From a virus: DNA of 35,205 bases. Position numbers and translations under genes: made by a program. This document shows, piece by piece, positions 15,448 to 35,205 of this stretch. The stretch lies in the UHGV virus genome UHGV-0178511; one strand, written 5' to 3'. Under the pieces are notes generated by a model. The model made no database searches, was not told the origin of the DNA, and saw only the letters and a list, made by a program, of their open reading frames with translations. Within the stretch, counting starts at the first letter, position 1. Every line of letters starts with the position of its first letter.

Positions 15448-15771
15448 ATGAAGATGCCAGAAAAACATGACCTGTTAGCTGCCATTCTCGCGGCAAAGGA
15501 ACAAGGCATCGGGGCAATCCTTGCGTTTGCAATGGCGTACCTTCGCGGCAGATATAATGGCGGTGCGTTTACAAAAACAGTAATCGACGCAACGATGTGC
15601 GCCATTATCGCCTGGTTCATTCGTGACCTTCTCGACTTCGCCGGACTAAGTAGCAATCTCGCTTATATAACGAGCGTGTTCATCGGCTACATCGGTACTG
15701 ACTCGATTGGTTCGCTTATCAAACGCTTCGCTGCTAAAAAAGCCGGAGTAGAAGATGGTGGAAATCAATAA
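15448..15771 (+). CDS. S: Class I holin S with dual-start motif
   Basis: 107 aa beginning [17 protein letters not shown] (Met1-Lys2-Met3 as in lambda S107/S105). Confidence 0.95.
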
Positions 15772-16231
15772 TCAACGTAAGGCGTTCCTCGATATGCTGG
15801 CGTGGTCAGAGGGAACTGATAACGGACGGCAGAAAACCAGAAATCATGGTTATGACGTCATTGTTGGCGGAGAGCTATTCACTGATTACTCCGATCACCC
15901 TCGCAAACTTGTCACGCTAAACCCCAAACTCAAATCAACAGCAGCCGGGCGTTACCAGCTTCTTTCCCGTTGGTGGGATGCCTATCGTAAGCAGCTTGGC
16001 CTGAAAGACTTCTCTCCGAAAAGCCAGGACGCCGTGGCACTGCAACAGATTAAAGAACGTGGCGCTTTACCGATGATTGATCGCGGTGATATTCGTCAGG
16101 CTATTGACCGTTGCAGCAATATCTGGGCTTCACTGCCGGGGGCTGGTTATGGTCAGTTCGAGCATAAGGCTGACAGTTTGATTGCAAAATTCAAAGAGGC
16201 TGGCGGAACGGTCAGAGAGATTGAGGTATGA
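15755..16231 (+). CDS. R: Endolysin R (lambda-type lytic transglycosylase)
   Basis: 158 aa, [51 protein letters not shown]... Confidence 0.95.
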
Positions 16232-16665
16232 GCAGAGTCACCGCGATTATCTCCGCTCTGGTTATCTGCATCATCGTCTGCCTGTCATGGGCTGTTAATC
16301 ATTACCGTGATAACGCCATCGACTACAAAGAGCAGCGCGATAAGGCCGCATCCACAATTGCTGACATGCAGAAGCGTCAACGTGATGTAGCAGAACTCGA
16401 CGCAATATACACAAAGGAGCTTGCTGATGCTAACGCGACTATCGAAAGTCTCCGTGCTGATGTTTCTGCTGGGCGTAAGCGCCTGCAAGTCGCCGCCACC
16501 TGTGCAAAGTCAACGACCGGAGCCAGCAGCATGGGCGATGGAGAAAGCCCAAGACTTACAGCAGATGCTGAACTCAATTATTACCGTCTCCGAAGTGGAA
16601 TCGACAAGATAACCGCGCAGGTTAACTACCTGCAGGAGTACATCAGGACTCAGTGCCTGAAATAA
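16228..16665 (+). CDS. Rz: Rz inner-membrane spanin
   Basis: N-terminal TM segment ([16 protein letters not shown]) and coiled-coil; follows R with ATGA overlap. Confidence 0.9.
16421..16612 (+). CDS. Rz1: Rz1 outer-membrane lipoprotein spanin embedded in Rz (+1 frame)
   Basis: Lipobox LLGVSAC then Pro-rich [13 protein letters not shown]; entirely within Rz in another frame. Confidence 0.7.
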
Positions 16666-24883: not shown

Positions 24884-25108
24884 ATGACACACATGATCTT
24901 TCGTCATGGCGACATGAAGAAGTGGAAAGGCGTTGGCTACGACTTTGAAATCGTGAAAGCCGAAGAGCTTCAGGAATATCTGGATGCTGGTTGGTTTTCA
25001 CATCCTGATGACCTTTTGAAGGATGTTGCAGAGCCAGAAGAAAAACAGCGTAAAAAGCCTGGTCGAAAACCTAAGGCGGCAGCAGATGAACCTGACAACG
25101 AAGGGTGA
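24884..25108 (+). CDS. Small acidic/basic-tailed ORF between coat and gp4
   Basis: 74 aa ([34 protein letters not shown]...[10 protein letters not shown]); P22 has a short ORF here. Confidence 0.4.
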
Positions 25109-25586
25109 TTTAGTCCTTGCGGCATTACGTAAGCTCGGTGTGGCATCAAATGCCACGTTAACCGATGTCGAACCGCAGTCTATGGAAGACGGCGTCAACG
25201 ACCTTGAAATGATGATGGCTGAATGGCTTGGAGGTGATGCGTCACCTGGTATCAACGTTGGCTACATTTTCGCTGATGCAGATGTCGCTCCGGATCCTGG
25301 CGATGAGCACGGTTTGTCAAATAACGCTATCAATGCCGTCATTTTCAACCTTGCCTGCCGCATTGCTCCAGATTATGCGCTGGAAGCGTCTGCAAAACTT
25401 ATAACCACTGCCAGATACGGGAAAGAGCGACTCGTCAAACTGTCTGCAATGGACAGAGCAAAAGCCGCTAAATGTAAGTCCGGTTATCCAAACCGTATGC
25501 CTGTTGGTAGCGGTAATCAGTTGGCGAAGTGGAACGGTTGGAATTACTTCCACCGGAAGGAACCTTGCGATAACGGGAGCGAATAA
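25086..25586 (+). CDS. Head-completion/tail-adaptor protein (P22 gene 4-like)
   Basis: Start at internal Met ([33 protein letters not shown]...) giving about 166 aa like P22 gp4. Confidence 0.85.
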
Positions 25587-27005
25587 ATGCCGATTCAGCA
25601 ACTTCCGCTTATGAAAGGTGTCGGCAAAGACTTTCGAAACGCCGACTATATCGACTATCTGCCAGTGAATATGCTGGCAACCCCCAAAGAAATCCTCAAC
25701 AGCAGTGGATATCTTCGCTCATTCCCTGGCATTGCCAAACGCTCTGATGTGAACGGTGTATCTCGCGGCGTCGAGTACAACATGGCGCAGAGTGCTGTTT
25801 ATCGCGTGTGTGGTGGGAAGCTTTACAAAGGCGAAAGCGAAGTCGGTGACGTCTCCGGAAGTGGTCGCGTATCAATGGCGCATGGTCGGACATCTCAGGC
25901 TGTAGGCGTTAATGGTCAACTGGTAGAGTATCGTTATGATGGCACGGTTAAAACCGTCTCAAACTGGCCTACAAACAGCGGATTCACGCAGTATGAGTTA
26001 GGCTCGGTCCGCGACATTACGCGCTTACGTGGGCGTTATGCGTGGTCAAAAGACGGAACTGATTCATGGTTTATCACTGACCTTGAAGACGAATCGCATC
26101 CTGACCGCTACAGCGCACAATATCGTGCCGAGTCGCAGCCTGACGGCATCATCGGAATCGGAACATGGCGAGACTTCATCGTCTGCTTTGGTTCATCGAC
26201 GATTGAATATTTTTCCCTGACAGGTGCAACCACCGTTGGTGCCGCTTTGTATGTCGCCCAGCCATCACTGATGGTGCAGAAAGGCATTGCCGGAACCTAC
26301 TGCAAAACGCCGTTTGCTGACTCGTATGCGTTCATCAGCAATCCGGCAACAGGCGCGCCGTCTGTGTACATCATCGGCTCCGGTCAGGTATCACCAATCG
26401 CCAGCGCGAGCATTGAGAAAATCCTCCGCTCCTACACTGCTGATGAACTGGCTGATGGCGTGATGGAGTCTCTGCGATTTGATGCGCATGAGCTGCTGAT
26501 TATCCACCTGCCGCGCCATGTTCTTGTTTACGACGCATCTTCAAGCGCCAATGGTCCGCAATGGTGTGTGTTGAAAACAGGCCTGTATGACGATGTGTAC
26601 CGCGCTATCGACTTCATTTACGAAGGCAATCAGATAACGTGCGGCGATAAGCTGGAGTCCGTGACCGGGAAATTGCAATTCGACATCAGCAGCCAGTACG
26701 ACAAGCAACAGGAACACCTGCTGTTTACTCCACTGTTCAAAGCGGATAACGCCAGAGTGTTCGACCTTGAGGTTGAATCGTCAACTGGCGTTGCGCAGTA
26801 TGCTGACCGCCTTTTTCTCTCTGCAACCACTGACGGCATCAATTACGGGCGTGAGCAGATGATTGAGCAGAATGAACCGTTCGTTTACGACAAACGCGTT
26901 TTGTGGAAGCGAGTAGGGCGCATCAGGAAAAATGTCGGCTTCAAATTGCGCGTTATCACGAAGTCACCTGTCACTCTGTCTGGCTGCCAGATAAGGATTG
27001 AGTAA
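25587..27005 (+). CDS. Tail hub protein (P22 gene 10-like)
   Basis: 472 aa, [49 protein letters not shown]... Confidence 0.9.
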
Positions 27006-27853
27006 TGGCGGATTCGAATCTCAATGTGCCGGTAATCATCCAGGCTACGCGGCTCGACACATCAGTCCTTCCACGCAATATCTTCTCGCAGTCATATCTG
27101 CTGTACGTTATCGCACAGGGCACTGATGTTGGTAACGTGGCTAACAAAGCCAACGAGGCCGGACAGGGCGCTTATGATGCACAGGTCAGGAACGATGAGC
27201 AGGATGTGATTCTCGCTGACCATGAGCAGCGAATTTCTGCTGCGGAAGCAACGCTTGTTAATCATGAGGAGCGAATCAGCCAGGCAGAATCAACTCTTCA
27301 GGACCATGAAACACGAATAGCTCAGAATGAAAGCGATATTTCGTCGCTTGACACAAGAGTTCAGTCGCTGGAGTCGCAGGTTTCAGACCATGAAACGCGC
27401 ATCGATGCTCTGGAGTATGCCACTACTCGCAAGAAGTCGGAGGTTGTTTACTCTGGCGTATCTGTAACCATCCCGACAGCGCCGACCAACCTTGTTAGCC
27501 TACTGAAAACGCTCACGCCGTCATCCGGCACGTTGGCACCATTCTTCGACACCGTTAACAACAAGATGGTTGTGTTCAACGAGAACAAAACCTTGTTCTT
27601 CAAGCTGTCGATCGTCGGGACGTGGCCCAGCGGAACCGCAAACAGGTCAATGCAGCTAACCTTTTCCGGCTCTGTTCCTGACACACTGGTCAGCAGTCGT
27701 AATGCGGCGACAACAACCGACAACATCCTGTTAGCTACGTTCTTCAGCGTGGATAAAGACGGCTTTCTTGCCACAAATGGCAGTACGTTAACCATTCAGT
27801 CAAATGGGGCGGCGTTTACTGCCACAACCATCAAGATAATCGCGGAGCAGTAA
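27005..27853 (+). CDS. Tail needle protein with trimeric coiled-coil and C-terminal knob (Sf6-type rather than P22 gp26)
   Basis: 282 aa; heptad-like repeats ([64 protein letters not shown]) then about 140 aa globular C-terminus. Confidence 0.8.
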
Positions 27854-28308
27854 TGATTCAGTTCAAACCAACGCGAAACATCGACCTGATCGAAGCAGTC
27901 GGAAATCACCCTGACATTATTGCCGGAAGCAACAACGGTGATGGATACGACTACAAGCCTGAATGCCGTTACTTTGAGGTGAACGTGCACGGTCAGTTTG
28001 GCGGCATTGTTTACTATCAGGAGATTCAGCCGATGACCTTTGATTGCCACGCCATGTACCTGCCAGAGATTCGCGGCTTCAGCAAGGAAATCGGGCTGGC
28101 GTTCTGGCGATACATTCTGACTAACACCACCGTTCAGTGCATCACATCGTTCGCTGCACGCAAATTCCGCCACGGGCAGATGTACTGCGCAATGATTGGC
28201 CTTAAGCGTGTAGGAACCATCAAGAAATACTTCAAAGGCGTGGATGACGTGACGTTTTACAGCGCCACACGCGAAGAATTAATCGACTTCCTGAATCACG
28301 GGAGATAG
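27853..28308 (+). CDS. Virion-associated protein in the P22 gene 14 position
   Basis: 151-aa ORF between tail needle and ejection proteins; assignment by synteny only. Confidence 0.45.
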   Translation: MIQFKPTRNIDLIEAVGNHPDIIAGSNNGDGYDYKPECRYFEVNVHGQFGGIVYYQEIQPMTFDCHAMYLPEIRGFSKEIGLAFWRYILTNTTVQCITSFAARKFRHGQMYCAMIGLKRVGTIKKYFKGVDDVTFYSATREELIDFLNHGR

Positions 28309-28310
28309 CC

Positions 28311-29003
28311 ATGTTATATGCATTTAAGCTGGGCAGAAAACTGCGCGGCGAGGAACCTTATTGCCCTGAAAAAGGCGGGAAAGGTGGCAGCTCTGATAAA
28401 AGCGCAAAGTATGCAGCAGAAGCTCAGAAGTATGCCGCAGACCTGCAAAATCAGCAGTGGCAGACGATCATGAAAAACCTTGCTCCGTTCACGCCGCTTG
28501 CGGAGCAGTATGTTAACCAGCTTCAGAATCTTTCCAGTTTAGAAGGTCAGGGGCAGGCACTTAATCAGTATTACAACTCTCAGCAGTATAAAGACCTTGC
28601 AGGGCAGGCGCGTTACCAGAGTCTTGCTGCTGCGGAGGCGACGGGTGGACTTGGTTCGACAGCCACAAGCAATCAACTGGCTACGATCGCGCCGACACTC
28701 GGTCAGTCTTGGTTATCAAATCAGATGAGCAATTACAACAATCTAGCAAACGTTGGGCTTGGTGCGCTGCAAGGTCAGGCAAACGCCGGGCAGACGTACG
28801 CCAACAACATGAGCAGCATTGCACAGCAAAGCGCAGCTCTTGCCGCTGCTAATGCCAATAAACCATCAAGTCTTCAGACTGCAATTAGCGGTGGCACGTC
28901 TGGTGCGATTGCCGGTGCAGGTCTTGCCAGCCTTTTGGGAACATCAACTCCTTGGGGCGCTGGCATTGGTGCTGGTATCGGATTGCTTGGCTCGTTGTTT
29001 TAA
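28311..29003 (+). CDS. Ejection/internal virion protein (P22 gene 7-like)
   Basis: 230 aa, Gly/Ala/Gln-rich with C-terminal hydrophobic Gly-zipper tail; synteny. Confidence 0.7.
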   Translation: MLYAFKLGRKLRGEEPYCPEKGGKGGSSDKSAKYAAEAQKYAADLQNQQWQTIMKNLAPFTPLAEQYVNQLQNLSSLEGQGQALNQYYNSQQYKDLAGQARYQSLAAAEATGGLGSTATSNQLATIAPTLGQSWLSNQMSNYNNLANVGLGALQGQANAGQTYANNMSSIAQQSAALAAANANKPSSLQTAISGGTSGAIAGAGLASLLGTSTPWGAGIGAGIGLLGSLF

Positions 29004-29012
29004 GGGGTAATC

Positions 29013-30344
29013 ATGGCTACTTGGCAAGGAACAAACGGCGGATTGTTGGCTGGTATCGGCGGCGTCAACTCAAACGCTCCGAGCGTAAATGACATCGGCA
29101 ATACGCTTCAGCTTATCAGGCAGAACAATGATATTGAGCGTTCAGGCGCTAACAATGTTGGGCTGACTGCTTTGCAAGGTCTTTCAGGTATTGCGGGTGT
29201 TTTTCAGCAGGAAAAGCAGGCTCAGCGGCAGAAAGAATTTCAGCAGGCGTACGCTAATGCTTATGCGTCTGGTGATCGCGGTGCTTTGCGTCAGTTGGCT
29301 ACTCAATATCCAGACCAGATTGAATCCGTTCGTAAAGGCATGGGATTCATTGATGAAGAGCAGCGTAATTCTATCGGCACCTTAGCGGCTGGCGCACGCC
29401 TTGCGTCATCGTCTCCAGAAGCAATGCAATCATGGCTGCAAAACAACGCCGGTGAGTTAGCTCGTGTTGGCGTTAATCCTCATGACGTCGCTCAGATGTA
29501 CCAACAGAACCCGCGGCAGTTCGGCGAATTTGTCGATCATCTGGGGATGAACAGTCTCGGGCCCGAAAAATACTTTGACCTACAGGATAAAATGCAGGGT
29601 CGCCAGGTTACCATGCGCGGTCAGGATCTGGATTCGCAAACCGCCGCTCGGAATCAGGCAATCACAATGCGCGGACAAGATATCCAGGCGAATTTAGGTC
29701 AGCAGCGCATTAATCTGGACGCAGAAACAAACCGCATTAACAACGAAAATAAGCGCCTTGACCGGATGCTATCAGCAGAAACTAACGACCTGAAGCGCCA
29801 GGAAATACAGAGCCGCATAGCAGCCAACAACCAGCAGTTGCAGCAGAAGCAGCAAGCGCTAAATGATGGCTACAAAGACGGCATCAACACCCTCACAACC
29901 AGCATGTTCACTCTGAACGATATCGTTAGTTCTCCTTCACTTAAGAGCATTACAGGCTTACGTGGAGTAATCCCCAACGTTCCAGGCTCACAGGCTGCAG
30001 ACACTCAGGCACGACTTGATACCTTTAAATCACAAGCATACCTGACAGCAGTTCAGGCCATGCGAGGCATGGGCGCACTTTCTGATGCCGAGGGCAAAAA
30101 GCTCGACCAGGCTGTTGGTTCGCTGCAGAACTCGCAGAGCGAGGAGTCCTTTCGTCGCAACGCTGGCGTCATCCTGAACACGCTCAACCAGAAGCGTAAT
30201 GAGGCGGTTGGTAAGTACGTTCAGCAAAACGGTATCAAGCGAGTGGAAGCGCCTCAGGCTTCTATAGATTACCTGAAGCAGCACCCAGAGCTGTCAATCG
30301 ACTTCATTAATCGCTACGGATATCTTCCATCTTTGGGGCAGTAA
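29013..30344 (+). CDS. Ejection protein (P22 gene 20-like)
   Basis: 443 aa, Gln/Asn-rich; synteny. Confidence 0.7.
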   Translation: MATWQGTNGGLLAGIGGVNSNAPSVNDIGNTLQLIRQNNDIERSGANNVGLTALQGLSGIAGVFQQEKQAQRQKEFQQAYANAYASGDRGALRQLATQYPDQIESVRKGMGFIDEEQRNSIGTLAAGARLASSSPEAMQSWLQNNAGELARVGVNPHDVAQMYQQNPRQFGEFVDHLGMNSLGPEKYFDLQDKMQGRQVTMRGQDLDSQTAARNQAITMRGQDIQANLGQQRINLDAETNRINNENKRLDRMLSAETNDLKRQEIQSRIAANNQQLQQKQQALNDGYKDGINTLTTSMFTLNDIVSSPSLKSITGLRGVIPNVPGSQAADTQARLDTFKSQAYLTAVQAMRGMGALSDAEGKKLDQAVGSLQNSQSEESFRRNAGVILNTLNQKRNEAVGKYVQQNGIKRVEAPQASIDYLKQHPELSIDFINRYGYLPSLGQ

Positions 30345-33113
30345 ATGGCTAATTACCGTGATTTGTTAGAGCAGGCTGGCGCACGTTACGGTGTGCCAGA
30401 AGGGTTGATGACTGCACTGGGTGCCAAGGAGTCTTCTTACAACCCTGCCGCAGTAAGCTCCGCCGGGGCTGTAGGATTGACTCAGGTCATGCCTGGGACA
30501 TGGCGTGATATGGGTTATACCGATGAGCAAATGCAAAACCCCGAATATCAGGCTGACGCTGGCGCGCGCTATCTGGCAAAGATGTACCAGCAGTTTGGTA
30601 ACTGGCGTGATGCTCTTCAGGCTTATCACGACGGTCCCGGCAACGTTATGAAGGCAAAGCGTGGTGAATATACGCCAGGACCTGAAGGCCGCGGTTACGT
30701 TGATGATCGCTTTGCTCAATGGGCGGGTGACCCGGTGACAGACTCAACAGTCGAACAGCGCGCCACCTCTGCAAAGGTACATCCTCAGCAAGACCCTAAC
30801 AACCCGTTTGCACAACTGGAAGCACAGTCATCCGAACAAGTATCGGCATCAGGTGTGCAGTCAGACCCAAATAATCCATTTGCTCAGATTGAGCAGCAGG
30901 CAGCCAGTCAGCAGCCACCTCAACCCGTAAGTTCTGTCGCACCGAAACCTGTTCAGCAACAAACAGTTAATCAGGCCAATAATGAACCAGCACGTGAAGA
31001 ACCATCATTGATGCAACAAGCTGGCGATTGGCTCACAGGTGGTCAAAGTGCAGGGCAAATTACAGAGCAGGCTGGTCGTGGTCTGGTAAACATACCATTT
31101 GACGTATTGCAGGGTGGCGCAAGTCTGATTAATGCAATCAGCCAGGGGCTTGGTGGGCCAAAAGTATTGGATGATGTCTATCGTCCAGTCGACCGACCGA
31201 CAGATCCTTACGCGCAAGCTGGAGAGTCAATAGGCGGTTATCTTGTTCCTGGAGCAGGTGTAACTGGAAACATGGTCATTGGTTCTCTCGCTGACGCGGC
31301 GAATCAACGGGGTGATTTTGCCGAAAATGCCGCTATTAATGCCGGACTTAACATTGCTACGCATGGCCTGATAAATGGCGTTACCCATGGTGTTCGTGGT
31401 GCATCAAATATAATTAGTGGCAATAAAACATCTGCACAGAGAGCGACCACTGCGGCAACAGAAACATCACCATTCTCCGGTACTGCGCCAACAGAAACAT
31501 CACCATTCTCCGGTGATGCCGCTGCAGCAACAAATCCTGCGGTTCATGCCGCAGAGGCAAGAGCAGCACAAGGTGTACCAATGACGCCTGCGACGAGGGA
31601 CCCAGAGGAGGTCGTCCGCACAGTAGCAGCACAAAAAAGGCCAAATCTCGCTTCATCGCTTGATGAACTAGATATCAATCCTCAGGCTGAAGTTCTGGAG
31701 TCTGCTGAAAGGCTTAATGTTGATTCATTACTCCCTTCACACTTTTCCGGGAACGAGCAATACAAGGCAGTTGAGCAAGCAATCAAGTCCCGTGCGGGTT
31801 CCGCTCTACGGGTGCAGGAAAATGAAGCAATCAGGCAACTAGCACAGGGCGCGGGGGAGATAATTGATCGCGTTTCCGGTGCAAAAGATGCTCTTGGTAT
31901 GAGCGACAAGTTTATTGATACGATCAATGGAAGAATGTCTGCGCTGATGAAACGAAGCGACCAGCTTTATCGCAATGTTGAAAAGGCGATGCCTGCAGGT
32001 GCAAAAATTGATGCGCCATCAACAAGGTCAATGCTCAAACAGGTGGCAGAAGATCTTGGCGGGATGAAAAACCTTGACCCTATTGAAAAGAGAGTCTTTC
32101 GGGCAGTTAATCCAGGCAAGAACGGCGCATTAACTTATGCAAATCTCAATAAGCAACGACGACTTGTTGGTGATGCACTTCATAAGAATTCTGGACCATA
32201 TAAAGATGCTGATCGCGCTGCTTTATCGAGGCTTTACGGTTCGCTCGCCGATGATCAAAAGGCGGCGCTGTCAGAGACAAATGCATTACGTGATTTTGAA
32301 GTTGCTCAGAGGCTTGTTCAGATGCGAAAAAGCATGGAAGAGCAAATGATTAATCTAACTGGCAGAACGCTGAACGGTGATGTTTCTCGCAAAGCAACTA
32401 CAGCACTACAGGCAATGTCGAAAGGCGATGCCAAAGGATTTCGTGAATTGATGCAAAACACGCCGTCCAGGAAGCTAAGAACCGAGCTACTGGGAACAGG
32501 TCTTCGGGATATGCTTTCGAACGGAAAACGTGGCGCTGATTTTAATCCTGCAGGGTTTGCTGACTGGTATCAAAACATGTTAGCAAACGGGCAGATGCGC
32601 AATCTTGCCCGACATTTACCAAAAGAGACTATGTCAGGTCTGAACGATGTATATAAGGTCGCAAAGGCTATCAAAGATGCAAAATCTTACGAGATAACTA
32701 CAGGAAGACTAAACGAGTTCGTCAAACGGTTTAATCGCGTCACTGCGGCAAATGAATTTGTTGCTAACCATGCCCAACGCATTGGCACTGCGGTTGGTTC
32801 AACTGTGTCAGGACCGTTCAGTGCAGTAGGTGCTGTTGCTGGGTCAGAAATTGGGGCAAAAGTCGCCAGCAAAATCAGGGCGATGGGCGGCGCTGAATCA
32901 ATTGAATCTGCAGAAAAGCTAATTAGCTCACCAGAATTCCAGAAAGCAGCAAGGCTGGCAGTAAAACAAGCACCAGAAAGCATCGTTGATACAACTGTAA
33001 GACGCTCTTCTGCTTGGCGCTCGTTTTACAACTCACTTCCAGAATCAGATAAGAAAACCATATCAAGGCTAGGCATCATGTACTGGATGAACAGTGATGA
33101 TAACCAGAAGTAA
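30345..33113 (+). CDS. Large ejection protein with N-terminal lytic transglycosylase (SLT) domain (P22 gene 16 position)
   Basis: 922 aa; SLT motifs [27 protein letters not shown] in the first ~120 aa; internal peptide repeats. Confidence 0.8.
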
Positions 33114-33130: not shown

Positions 33131-33391
33131 TTAGCTGCTGTCTTTTTTATATAGCTCTTTGAGAGTATCAAAGACAATTTTCTTAACCATATCAGATTGT
33201 TGTTCTGCCATACGCTCTGCATCGTCAATGTAAACTGATGTAGAGCTTTGTTTATCCAATGATTCTTCAATCGCTGCAATTATCTCTGAGTTCAGCGACC
33301 TGTTATTCATCTTCGCACGCAGCTTAATTTTCGCGTGGAGTTCATGCGGAAGTCTCAAGTGAAACTGCGCCTCGTCGTATTTGCTGTACAT
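33131..33391 (-). CDS. mnt: Mnt-like ribbon-helix-helix repressor
   Basis: From the internal Met: FHLRLPHELHAKIKLRAKMNNRSLNSEIIAAIEESL...DDAERMAEQQSDMVKKIVFDTLKELYKK parallels P22 Mnt FNFRMPMEVREKLKFRAEANGRSMNSELLQIVQDAL...NDAERLADEQSELVKKMVFDTLKDLYKK. Confidence 0.8.
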   Translation of the reverse strand: MYSKYDEAQFHLRLPHELHAKIKLRAKMNNRSLNSEIIAAIEESLDKQSSTSVYIDDAERMAEQQSDMVKKIVFDTLKELYKKDSS

Positions 33392-33512
33392 CCTTGATGC
33401 CTCACCAGTTGGGTGGAATGGCATCGTAACCTACTGGATAAATACTCAATAGTACCATTTCGGTATGCAATCACATCATGGTTGCATCATATCATTCGTC
33501 TGGAGCAATGAA
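33392..33512. promoter_or_regulatory. Divergent mnt/tailspike intergenic region with candidate operator palindrome
   Basis: ATGCAA-N11-TTGCAT inverted repeat at 33465-33487, followed by TATCAT (-10-like) and GGAG RBS before the tailspike ATG. Confidence 0.4.
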
Positions 33513-35205
33513 ATGTCAGATATCACCGCAAATGTTGTGGTAAGCATGCCTTCGCAACTCTTCACTATGGCTCGTTCTTTTAAAGCCGTAGCCAATGGCA
33601 AAATTTATATCGGTAAAATTGACACTGACCCGGTAAATCCAGAAAACCAGATTCAGGTTTATGTGGAAAACGAAGACGGTTCTCACGTTCCTGTTTCGCA
33701 ACCAATCATCATTAACGCTGCTGGTTACCCTGTATATAACGGACAGATTGCCAAGTTCGTAACTGTGCAAGGCCATTCTATGGCTGTTTATGATGCATAC
33801 GGTGCGCAGCAGTTCTATTTTCCGAATGTGCTAAAGTATGATCCAGATCAGTTTAAGGGCAATCTCCTGAGCGAAGATCACTCACTTGGCGACTCTCTAG
33901 TCATGCATAACCCACAGTTTGTCGATAGCACATCGACCATTCTCTCAAAAAAGCTAACTATCGACCTGAGGACGCTTACAGACTACGGGTTTGCTGAGGG
34001 AAACACCGGTGCTCAGAACAAAGCTGCATTTCAGAAGGCTATTGATGATGCTACGTTGCCAACTGAGATTGTTATACCAGAGGGGGCGTTCATTGTTGAC
34101 CCTGGTATTACGATTAAGAATACTGTCACCATGATACGAGGTGCTGGCGCATATCAGTCCAGAATTTTCTCTACGGGTACAGCGGCACCGATAATCACGC
34201 AACAAGATGGGGTAATTACGTTCTGCGAGTTCAGGGACTTTGGTCTTGACGGAAATGGCTACGCAGCTAACGGCATCAGTCTTACTGAAGCCAACCACAT
34301 TAAAATAGAAAATATTGACGTGGTTAATACTAATAACAACGCAATATTAGTTAACGGTTACTCCATTGACATCATTGGGTGCCGGTTGTTTCAAAACGCC
34401 GGTAACGGTATTAATGTTGGTGGTTACTGCAATAATATTAATATAATCAACAGCCGTATCTATGGTAACGGAGCCGGTGGAGTTTTACTTACGCCAGCTT
34501 ACGCTGAGGGCGGTATGAGCGTCAGAGTTAATGGCAACAATATAGAGCAAAATAAGTTCTACGGACTTTTGGCTTACGGGGTTAAAGGCCTTAACCTTGA
34601 TGATAACTATTGGGAACGCAACGGTGAGATTGGTTACCAGTATAGTGTACCTGAGTCTATTACAGTACGTGCGGATATCCACCTTATCGCGAACAATTTT
34701 ACATTAATTCCTGACCTTTCAAAAATTAATGATACCGTATCTATTCGCGGGAATCAGCAGACCGCGATTGGCTACGCCAGCGCGCTACCTAACCAAGACG
34801 GATTTATTTTCACGAACTATGCGAAAAACCTGACGATTGAAAATAATCAGTTATTAGACGCATCGAAAGTGAATAATTTATTAGCAATGTACCACAATAA
34901 TCTTTCGTCCAAAGTTACTGACAGGCTATATCTTGCCAACAACACAGTGAACTCCATCGGATACGTTGGTAGTTATGACCCGGCGACACAAAACCCTGAC
35001 ACTGCGCATTTAATAGATATTGCGAACAGAGAGTTAACTGCTAACTATCTTGATCGAAATATGTTGCTCTGGACTGCGGCATCTGGAACTACAGGAACAT
35101 TGATAAAAACTCAAAACATCTATGCTGGTGGATTTGCCCCTATATTTCCAGACACCTGTTATCACTTAACCCATTACTGGCCTGCTGCCGCAGATATTCC
35201 CGTGG
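33513..35205 (+). CDS. Tailspike protein, 3'-truncated: P22 gp9-like N-terminal head-binding domain plus non-P22 parallel beta-helix receptor-binding domain
   Basis: N-terminus [59 protein letters not shown] matches P22 gp9; remainder has beta-helix repeats ([51 protein letters not shown]). No stop in window; last 25 codons lie in the terminal inverted repeat. Confidence 0.9.
35128..35204. repeat. Terminal inverted repeat, right copy (exact reverse complement of 1-77)
   Basis: 77/77 identity by manual reverse complement; base 35205 (g) is beyond what can be compared. Confidence 0.9.

Follow-up and report, generated by a model that had tools for sequence, protein, structure and literature searches.

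Podoviruses have tails that do not reach across the envelope and must nevertheless bring their DNA past the murein, a problem that T7 solves in part with an SLT domain on gp16. The locus described here raises the question of whether a P22-like phage brings its own murein cutter along on an ejection protein. The window, by which we mean the whole analyzed stretch of 35,205 nucleotides from the virus genome UHGV-0178511, contains at 30345..33113 (plus strand, stop codon included) an ATG-started open reading frame (ORF) for a protein of 922 residues that begins with an SLT lytic transglycosylase domain. Three proteins serve DNA ejection in this temperate, P22-like phage of Escherichia coli or Shigella, and the 922-residue protein is the last of them. 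We consider it likely that it is a gp16-type ejection (pilot) protein assembled from exchangeable modules, with an SLT domain that cuts peptidoglycan locally during DNA delivery. The proposed modules are an SLT leader with a disordered tail carrying DPNNPFAQ motifs, a conserved gp16 N-domain, a disordered minisatellite linker and a helical C-terminal body.

Domain organization of the gene 16 product

The SLT (GH23) lytic transglycosylase domain occupies residues 1 to about 130 (30345..30734, plus strand). The Pfam profile PF01464 (SLT) matches residues 7-110 with E=3.4e-25 and a score of 88.3 bits against a gathering cutoff of 21.3, and the match covers profile positions 2-110 of 117. The top sequence match in the PDB is E. 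coli Slt70 (E=5.5e-10), whose Glu478-Ser479 pair aligns onto Glu29-Ser30, and an alignment with residues 10-139 of T7 gp16 (28% identity, E=2e-10) places the catalytic Glu37 of that protein ('TESRF' motif) onto the same Glu29. The codons for the predicted catalytic pair in these alignments are GAG TCT at 30429..30434 (plus strand). The AlphaFold2 model has a predicted local distance difference test score (pLDDT) above 90 over residues 1-130, shows the goose-lysozyme-like alpha-helical fold, and superposes at 2.1-2.3 Å on active lytic transglycosylases. An earlier reading of the window made from the sequence only, without database searches, had proposed an SLT catalytic domain here, and the domain search (Pfam and Slt70 matches alike) supports that fold.

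Conservation of the active site was followed in an alignment of 43 homologous sequences, 31 of which have the SLT domain. In every one of these 31 the Glu-Ser pair is kept, as is the GLxQ(V/L)(M/L)P motif, although the sequences are only about 40-60% identical overall; in the window the corresponding motifs are GLTQVMP and, further along the domain, AYHDGPG. Such invariance of the pair and the motif across homologues of about 40% identity is what a functional active site would be expected to show.

The remainder of the protein is organized around the gp16 family. The pLDDT drops from 83 to 62 over residues 121-140 and is mostly below 50 from residue 144, and residues ~131-217 (30735..30995, plus strand) form a linker rich in Gln, Pro and Ser that is mostly predicted to be disordered. 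It is followed by the conserved gp16 N-domain, residues 218-345 (30996..31379, plus strand), which is Gly/Ala-rich and moderately hydrophobic and matches residues 53-177 of P22 gp16 with 84% identity (E=4e-65). A second disordered linker, which carries minisatellites, spans residues 346-433 (31380..31643, plus strand; pLDDT 25-44 over residues 341-430), and its length differs among near-identical alleles. The C-terminal helical body, residues 434-922 (31644..33110, plus strand), includes a Gly/Ala-rich segment at residues 813-831 and is modeled with pLDDT 73-95 over residues 441-720, 65 over 721-730 and 85-95 over 731-780; a structure search of the PDB gave no credible fold match for it. Family assignments agree with this organization: PHROG 770 ('DNA transfer protein') matches residues 108-875 with E=1e-158, PHROG 21143 matches with E=0, and PF26808 (Phage_P22_gp16) is annotated, in precomputed form, on close homologues. 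No transmembrane helix reaches a 19-residue Kyte-Doolittle mean of 1.6, the maximum being 1.18; three of the four top hydropathy peaks lie, below this threshold, in the gp16 N-domain, and the stretches of highest hydrophobicity are Gly/Ala-rich.

The size contrast with P22 gp16, put at about 600 residues in the sequence-only reading, is real (609 residues). The leader that precedes the gp16 N-domain is 217 residues long here and 52 in P22, and by sequence comparison about half of the extra length is attributable to the SLT module, the remainder to a longer type of body that measures 753-777 residues when it occurs without SLT.

Position agrees with these assignments. The start codon abuts the stop codon of the upstream gene (TAAATG), and the ORF fills the gene 16 slot at the end of a late operon with the canonical P22-like layout; the assignment to this position in the sequence-only reading is upheld by synteny as well as by the 84% identity given above. 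Upstream are the homologues of gp4 (a tail accessory factor; 25023..25586, plus strand, Pfam P22_Tail-4 E=1.5e-58) and gp10 (25587-27005), then a tail needle whose knob is of the Sf6 type (27005-27853, Pfam Phage_tail_NK E=1e-117), gp14/DUF2824 (27853-28308), the gp7 homologue, which is the first ejection protein (28311..29003, plus strand, Pfam P22_gp7 E=1.8e-134), and the gp20 homologue, an ejection protein of 443 residues (29013..30344, plus strand, Pfam Inj_translocase E=1e-67). The virion operon is complete within the window, and its order 10-26-14-7-20-16 matches P22, HK620, Sf6 and Sf101 and recurs in prophages of Klebsiella, Serratia and Cronobacter. Downstream, a gene for a Mnt/Arc-like repressor (33131-33424) runs on the minus strand, and a tailspike gene begins at about 33513. 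An ORF-poor region considered at 33425-35205 was rejected, since this tailspike gene extends past the end of the window. Overall the window is a mosaic P22-like (Lederbergvirus-type) genome, with IME10 nearest over the early and head regions.

A proposed role of the SLT domain in DNA delivery

The role we propose builds on what is reported for P22 and T7. P22 gp16 acts at the inner-membrane end of the DNA conduit (PMC10883804), and the N-terminal domain of T7 gp16 cuts glycan strands, an activity that matters when peptidoglycan is highly cross-linked (PMC8954989). The sequence-only reading had suggested a peptidoglycan-cutting step during ejection, which we regard as a sound inference from T7 gp16. 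About a dozen copies of the 922-residue protein, a figure carried over from P22 itself, would be packaged in the head and, after adsorption, expelled via the tail along with gp7 and gp20. The SLT domain would then refold in the periplasm, where Glu29, as single acid/base catalyst, would cleave bonds between N-acetylmuramic acid and N-acetylglucosamine locally. The murein mesh being opened in this way, the trans-periplasmic tube of gp20 and the inner-membrane end formed by gp16 would assemble, and the DNA would pass.

A separate lysis cassette (holin, lambda-R-like endolysin and Rz) is present at 15448-16665, and for this reason the SLT domain is not the endolysin of the phage. The endolysin ORF itself (15755-16231, 158 residues) has no Pfam match at E<=0.001 in the library searched; we take its sequence to be essentially that of the lambda R transglycosylase. 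In that case the phage would use one lytic transglycosylase to enter the cell and a second, unrelated one to leave it.

Several points weigh against the role proposed here. What the sequence shows is the identity of the domain, its catalytic motifs and fold, the position of the gene, the modularity and the polymorphism; that the protein is present in the virion, is ejected and is enzymatically active on murein, as well as its timing and role, is what we infer. P22 infects without SLT on gp16, and muralytic activity is credited to gp4, which is listed as a virion-associated lysin of P22 (PMC5380687); with a gp4 homologue encoded in the window, the SLT domain may be redundant. Passage of the domain through the tail channel in unfolded form, followed by refolding, is assumed by analogy with T7. 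No classical transmembrane helix is predicted, so that a place of the rest of the protein at the inner membrane would follow from the biochemistry of P22 gp16, and in the literature searched we found no published functional framework for an SLT-gp16 fusion.

In one alternative the SLT domain is catalytically inert, or serves only as a peptidoglycan-binding anchor that positions the ejectosome in the periplasm, while gp4 or host autolysins do any cutting. It would account for the fact that P22-type phages function with no SLT domain and for the gp4 homologue in the window, and the third SLT motif does read AYHDG instead of the common AYNxG. We nevertheless hold it improbable, because an inert domain would not be expected to keep the Glu-Ser pair and GLxQ(V/L)(M/L)P invariant in 31 homologues that have diverged to about 40% identity, or to superpose so closely on active enzymes. 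An active murein cutter therefore remains the preferred reading. Its benefit is probably conditional, to judge from T7, and might be felt, for example, on highly cross-linked or stationary-phase walls.

Exchange of the SLT cassette and variation of the linkers

The SLT cassette comprises residues 1-206, with a mosaic junction at about residue 206 (nucleotide ~30962). The first 618 nucleotides of the gene are 99.5% identical in IME10 and phiKp_30, beyond which gene 16 diverges completely; Dewey and Huey have nucleotides 1-899 of the gene in common with the window, and the gene 16 sequences of HK620, CUS-3 and epsilon34 match at the DNA level only from about nucleotides 605-652 onward. The same cassette is found on distinct bodies, in the window and Sf101 (911-922 residues), IME10 (797 residues), Dewey (875 residues) and the Cronobacter proteins P0065 (813 residues) and P0055 (927 residues). 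Conversely, bodies of the window type (93-98% identical) occur without SLT behind a P22-type leader (MKVTANGKTF; 753-759 residues in all) or an HK620-type leader (MAKAWKDV; 764-777 residues). Given that one and the same type of gp16 body is also found behind leaders without SLT, and that the gp4 homologue is present, we regard the cassette as accessory and not essential.

Isolated phages, too, have an SLT-gp16, namely Sf101, APC_JM3.2, IME10, Dewey and Huey. Of 5426 complete E. coli genomes, 70 contain the cassette, in every case with at least 99% identity, and 812-1204 contain a gp7 homologue; from these counts, roughly 6-9% of P22-like E. coli prophages carry this cassette. SLT leaders of two additional, divergent types occur, the first in Serratia, Pluralibacter and K. 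variicola and the second in K. electrica. In those prophages of Serratia, K. electrica, K. aerogenes and Cronobacter that were examined, the P22-like gene order around the SLT gene is unchanged. A second, DNA-divergent SLT variant in E. coli was suspected from the label 'lytic transglycosylase domain-containing protein' on matches to nucleotides 605-2769 of the gene and was rejected. In the one such match that was inspected, XH992, the label is attached to an SLT-less gene called as a pseudogene, which we read as a naming artefact; matches of this kind were left out of the count above, for which the cassette sequence was counted directly.

The C-terminal half of the neighboring gp20 is co-inherited with the SLT cassette. 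In 13 of 13 phages and prophages examined, representing five leader types, the final ~10-15 residues of gp20 change together with the type of gp16 leader. The leader found in the window (SLT1) goes with a gp20 tail containing DFINRYGYLP in the window, Sf101, APC_JM3.2, IME10, Dewey, Cronobacter P0055 and K. aerogenes P0058, and the ending '...DFINRYGYLPSLGQ' was found with every SLT1 leader examined. The P22-type leader goes with ...SYTSKSGI(K/Q)FTVE (P22, E. coli XH992), the HK620-type leader with ...FSSLWGD (HK620, Sf6), the SLT2 leader with ...GGDPSNPNSWRKN (Serratia P0048) and the SLT3 leader with ...YIRAHGYLPESYYQAQLKGAN (K. electrica P0035). The last 70 residues of gp20 are otherwise visibly different within a leader type (P22 versus XH992, HK620 versus Sf6). 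In complete E. coli genomes the C-terminal half of gp20 (window 29700-30344) is found in 69, compared with 70 that have the SLT cassette (30345-30962). The disordered sequence of each SLT leader type also contains a characteristic pair of short motifs with aromatic residues, namely DPNNPFAQ twice in SLT1, GPWxKY twice plus QPW(A/T)Q in SLT2, and SWA(A/Q)KRQQF twice in SLT3.

Genetic work has found that gp16 and gp20 must be matched (PMC10883804). We raise tentatively, and with more doubt than confidence, the idea that the gp16 leader and the last gp20 residues form a co-adapted docking unit in which the motif pairs would act as a bivalent 'tape' fastening gp16 to the periplasmic tube of gp20; the idea of a molecular tape comes from the fact that each SLT leader type has a motif pair of its own. 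Linkage of adjacent DNA accounts equally well for the co-variation, and the 'molecular tape' of T7 gp16 has no sequence similarity to residues 120-217 of the window's protein. If docking were true, the T7 gp15:gp16-N tunnel would have its P22-like counterpart in the SLT-gp16 proteins, and the natural variants with and without SLT on an identical body would offer a ready means of asking genetically under which conditions a podovirus has to supply a murein cutter itself.

Two kinds of internal repeat, both announced by the sequence-only reading, are present in the linkers. The two DPNNPFAQ motifs lie in the first linker, at residues 150-157 (30792..30815) and 174-181 (30864..30887; both plus strand), and by our own arithmetic an identical pair of eight-residue words in 922 residues has a chance expectation of ~2e-5. 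Between the copies 6 of 24 nucleotides have changed, each of them at a third codon position and without effect on the peptide, and DP(N/D/S)NPFAQ is kept twice in SLT1-type homologues from E. coli, Cronobacter, Klebsiella aerogenes and Shimwellia. Because the differences are synonymous and the pair is conserved across genera, we regard it as an old feature of the SLT cassette that has been selected at the peptide level.

The other repeat is of a different character. The 26-base pair (bp) exact direct repeat was found exactly where it had been placed, at 31456-31481 and 31489-31514 (chance expectation of an exact 26-mer pair within 2769 bp ~1e-9, again our arithmetic). Around it extends a 33-bp tandem duplication, 31449..31514 (plus strand; residues 369-390), of which the 26 bp are the core and which encodes TA(A/P)TETSPFSG in 2.0 copies, identical at 32 of 33 positions (Tandem Repeats Finder score 125). 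Copy number among related phages, which had been suggested as a check, does vary: the TETSPFSG unit occurs in one or two copies among near-identical relatives, and Sf101 and APC_JM3.2 have exactly one, with a clean 33-bp alignment gap relative to the window. The DNA identity of the units over the 26-bp core, and at 32 of 33 positions overall, makes the duplication very recent. An adjacent 30-bp minisatellite encoding AAATNPAVH(A/S) (window 31515-31560) is single-copy here. In relatives this unit is present in one to three copies, with two or three in near-identical E. coli proteins (P0003-P0012, P0022), and the lengths of E. coli loci over the same query span (2132, 2162, 2165 and 2192 bp) are consistent with increments of 30, 33 and 60 bp. 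Because this neighboring unit varies as well, the second linker appears to be a hot spot of in-frame tandem duplication.

One could suppose that these repeats are functional, the TETSPFSG copy number tuning how long the linker is, or a site for binding or modification, and thereby host range or resistance to superinfection exclusion, for example by SieA-like systems directed at gp16 and gp20. The TETSPFSG (one to two copies) and ATNPAVH (one to three) units do vary independently in proteins that are otherwise 93-98% identical, and SieA exclusion is known to act on gp16 and gp20. However, the sites known to allow escape from SieA map to the C-terminal part of gp16 and not to the repeat linker (PMC10883804, for targets and sites alike), the repeat region is predicted to be disordered (the pLDDT of 25-44 given above), TETSPFSG is missing from more distant homologues (P0024-P0028), and the 26-bp cores, identical in DNA, point to a very recent event. 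We consider a functional repeat quite improbable; most likely, replication slippage or unequal exchange within a flexible linker produced the TETSPFSG duplication as a neutral polymorphism.

That the long ORF is an artefact of prophage decay or assembly, joining a stand-alone transglycosylase gene to gene 16, is very improbable indeed: some E. coli copies do lie in deleted prophages and are called incomplete pseudogenes by the Prokaryotic Genome Annotation Pipeline (PGAP; FDN-24, XH992 and possibly PSJ-23), but the fusion is uninterrupted in the five independently isolated, plaque-forming phages named above and recurs, with unchanged gene order, in the prophages of six or more genera, the exact 922-residue sequence is present on 12 contigs, and the virion operon of the window is complete.

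A few further observations concern rearranged copies. The gene is 100% identical in E. coli FDN-24 (NZ_CP158147.1, 5773-8769) and FDN-9, near argW/intS, where it is directly preceded by early-region genes (DUF1317, DUF1382) and not by gene 20; because early-region genes replace gene 20 upstream, this prophage has a large internal deletion. PGAP calls the FDN-24 copy an incomplete pseudogene despite an intact ORF. In E. coli PSJ-23 (NZ_AP027637.1) the C-terminus of gp20 (2821135-2821779) lies 8 bp from a gene 16 match that starts at query nucleotide 1530, an arrangement which suggests that an internal deletion took the SLT cassette, the N-domain and the linker. A chimeric ORF (P0021, 730 residues) has an unrelated N-terminal region of ~185 residues joined to the gene 16 body exactly at the start of the repeat linker; in protein P0001 a recombination junction falls at this very point, which, to judge from these sequences, looks like a preferred breakpoint. 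Finally, in a Serratia P22-like prophage a Rap1a-family gene (PF18602) lies on the opposite strand right after the SLT-gp16 gene (locus L012, 5158-5526), in the position of P22's sieA; we take Rap1a to be a family of type VI immunity proteins.

Comparison with known systems

The SLT call as such is not new. The exact 922-residue sequence is in NCBI, on the 12 contigs mentioned, as 'transglycosylase SLT domain-containing protein', Sf101 gp13 is labeled 'transglycosylase', and Sf101-type proteins variously bear this label, 'lytic tail fiber protein' or 'transglycosylase SLT domain-containing protein'. The domain is thus annotated in databases, and it is its biology that is under-appreciated: our search for open-access papers found none that discusses SLT on a P22-like gp16, with the proviso that earlier comparative work may already note gene 16 types of this kind. 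A review describes P22-like phages as lacking a T7-like SLT domain on gp16 (PMC8954989). A sizeable minority of them carry a swappable N-terminal SLT cassette, which corrects that generalization. Hybrids in which ejection-protein genes are swapped have been built in P22 (PMC10883804); together with the natural occurrence of the same gp16 body with and without the enzyme, they would allow a test of when virion-borne peptidoglycan cleavage matters.

The closest known system is Sf101, whose gp13 (YP_009153087.1; RefSeq NC_027398, GenBank KJ832078) is 97.9% identical over its full length and has the same SLT cassette, N-domain, body and gene position; identical or near-identical E. coli prophage proteins also exist (for example, EEW0969869.1). 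The Sf101 and APC_JM3.2 proteins have 911 residues and one TA(A/P)TETSPFSG unit, compared with 922 residues and two units here. The paper on Sf101 treats ORF11-13 only as a variable injection module and leaves the SLT domain unmentioned. Beyond gene 16 the phage of the window is unlike Sf101, in that most of its genome is IME10-like and its needle has an Sf6-type knob. The needle gene is 849 bp long here and 639 bp in Sf101. Because the knob differs from that of Sf101, needle tip, ejection proteins and tailspike assort independently.

The gp16 proteins of P22 (609 residues), HK620 (722 residues) and Sf6 (665 residues) occupy the same operon slot but have short non-enzymatic leaders of ~50-80 residues. 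The comparison with Sf6/HK620-like ejection proteins proposed in the sequence-only reading gives a divided answer: HK620 gp16 is homologous (33% identity, residues 217-833 here against HK620 residues 60 to 618), similarity to Sf6 gp16 is marginal (E=0.66), and neither has an SLT domain. The conserved N-domain is shared with P22 and HK620 gp16. By analogy with all three, the 922-residue protein is presumably packaged and ejected as they are.

T7 gp16 (internal virion protein D, 1318 residues) likewise carries an N-terminal SLT domain on the last ejection protein, and the protein described here is 400 residues shorter. Beyond the SLT domain BLAST detects no significant similarity between the two, so that homology to the tape region and C-terminal hub of T7 gp16 is not supported, and only a weak whole-chain Foldseek match (E=5.6e-3, probability 0.69) links the protein to the T7 core structure 7eyb_I, which we take to be T7 gp16. 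A T7-type core stack is reported not to be formed by the ejection proteins of P22-like phages (PMC8954989). Among bacterial enzymes, Slt70, MltC and MltE/EmtA of E. coli and Slt of P. aeruginosa share the fold and the catalytic Glu-Ser motif with the SLT domain; unlike the bacterial family-1 lytic transglycosylases, the 922-residue protein has no signal peptide, lipobox or superhelical U and L domains, and its SLT domain would be delivered by the virion instead of by Sec. The protein is therefore not a new kind of system but a fairly ordinary, uncharacterized representative, a member of the P22 gp16 and SLT families that, beyond its SLT domain, stands apart from the T7 gp16 family.

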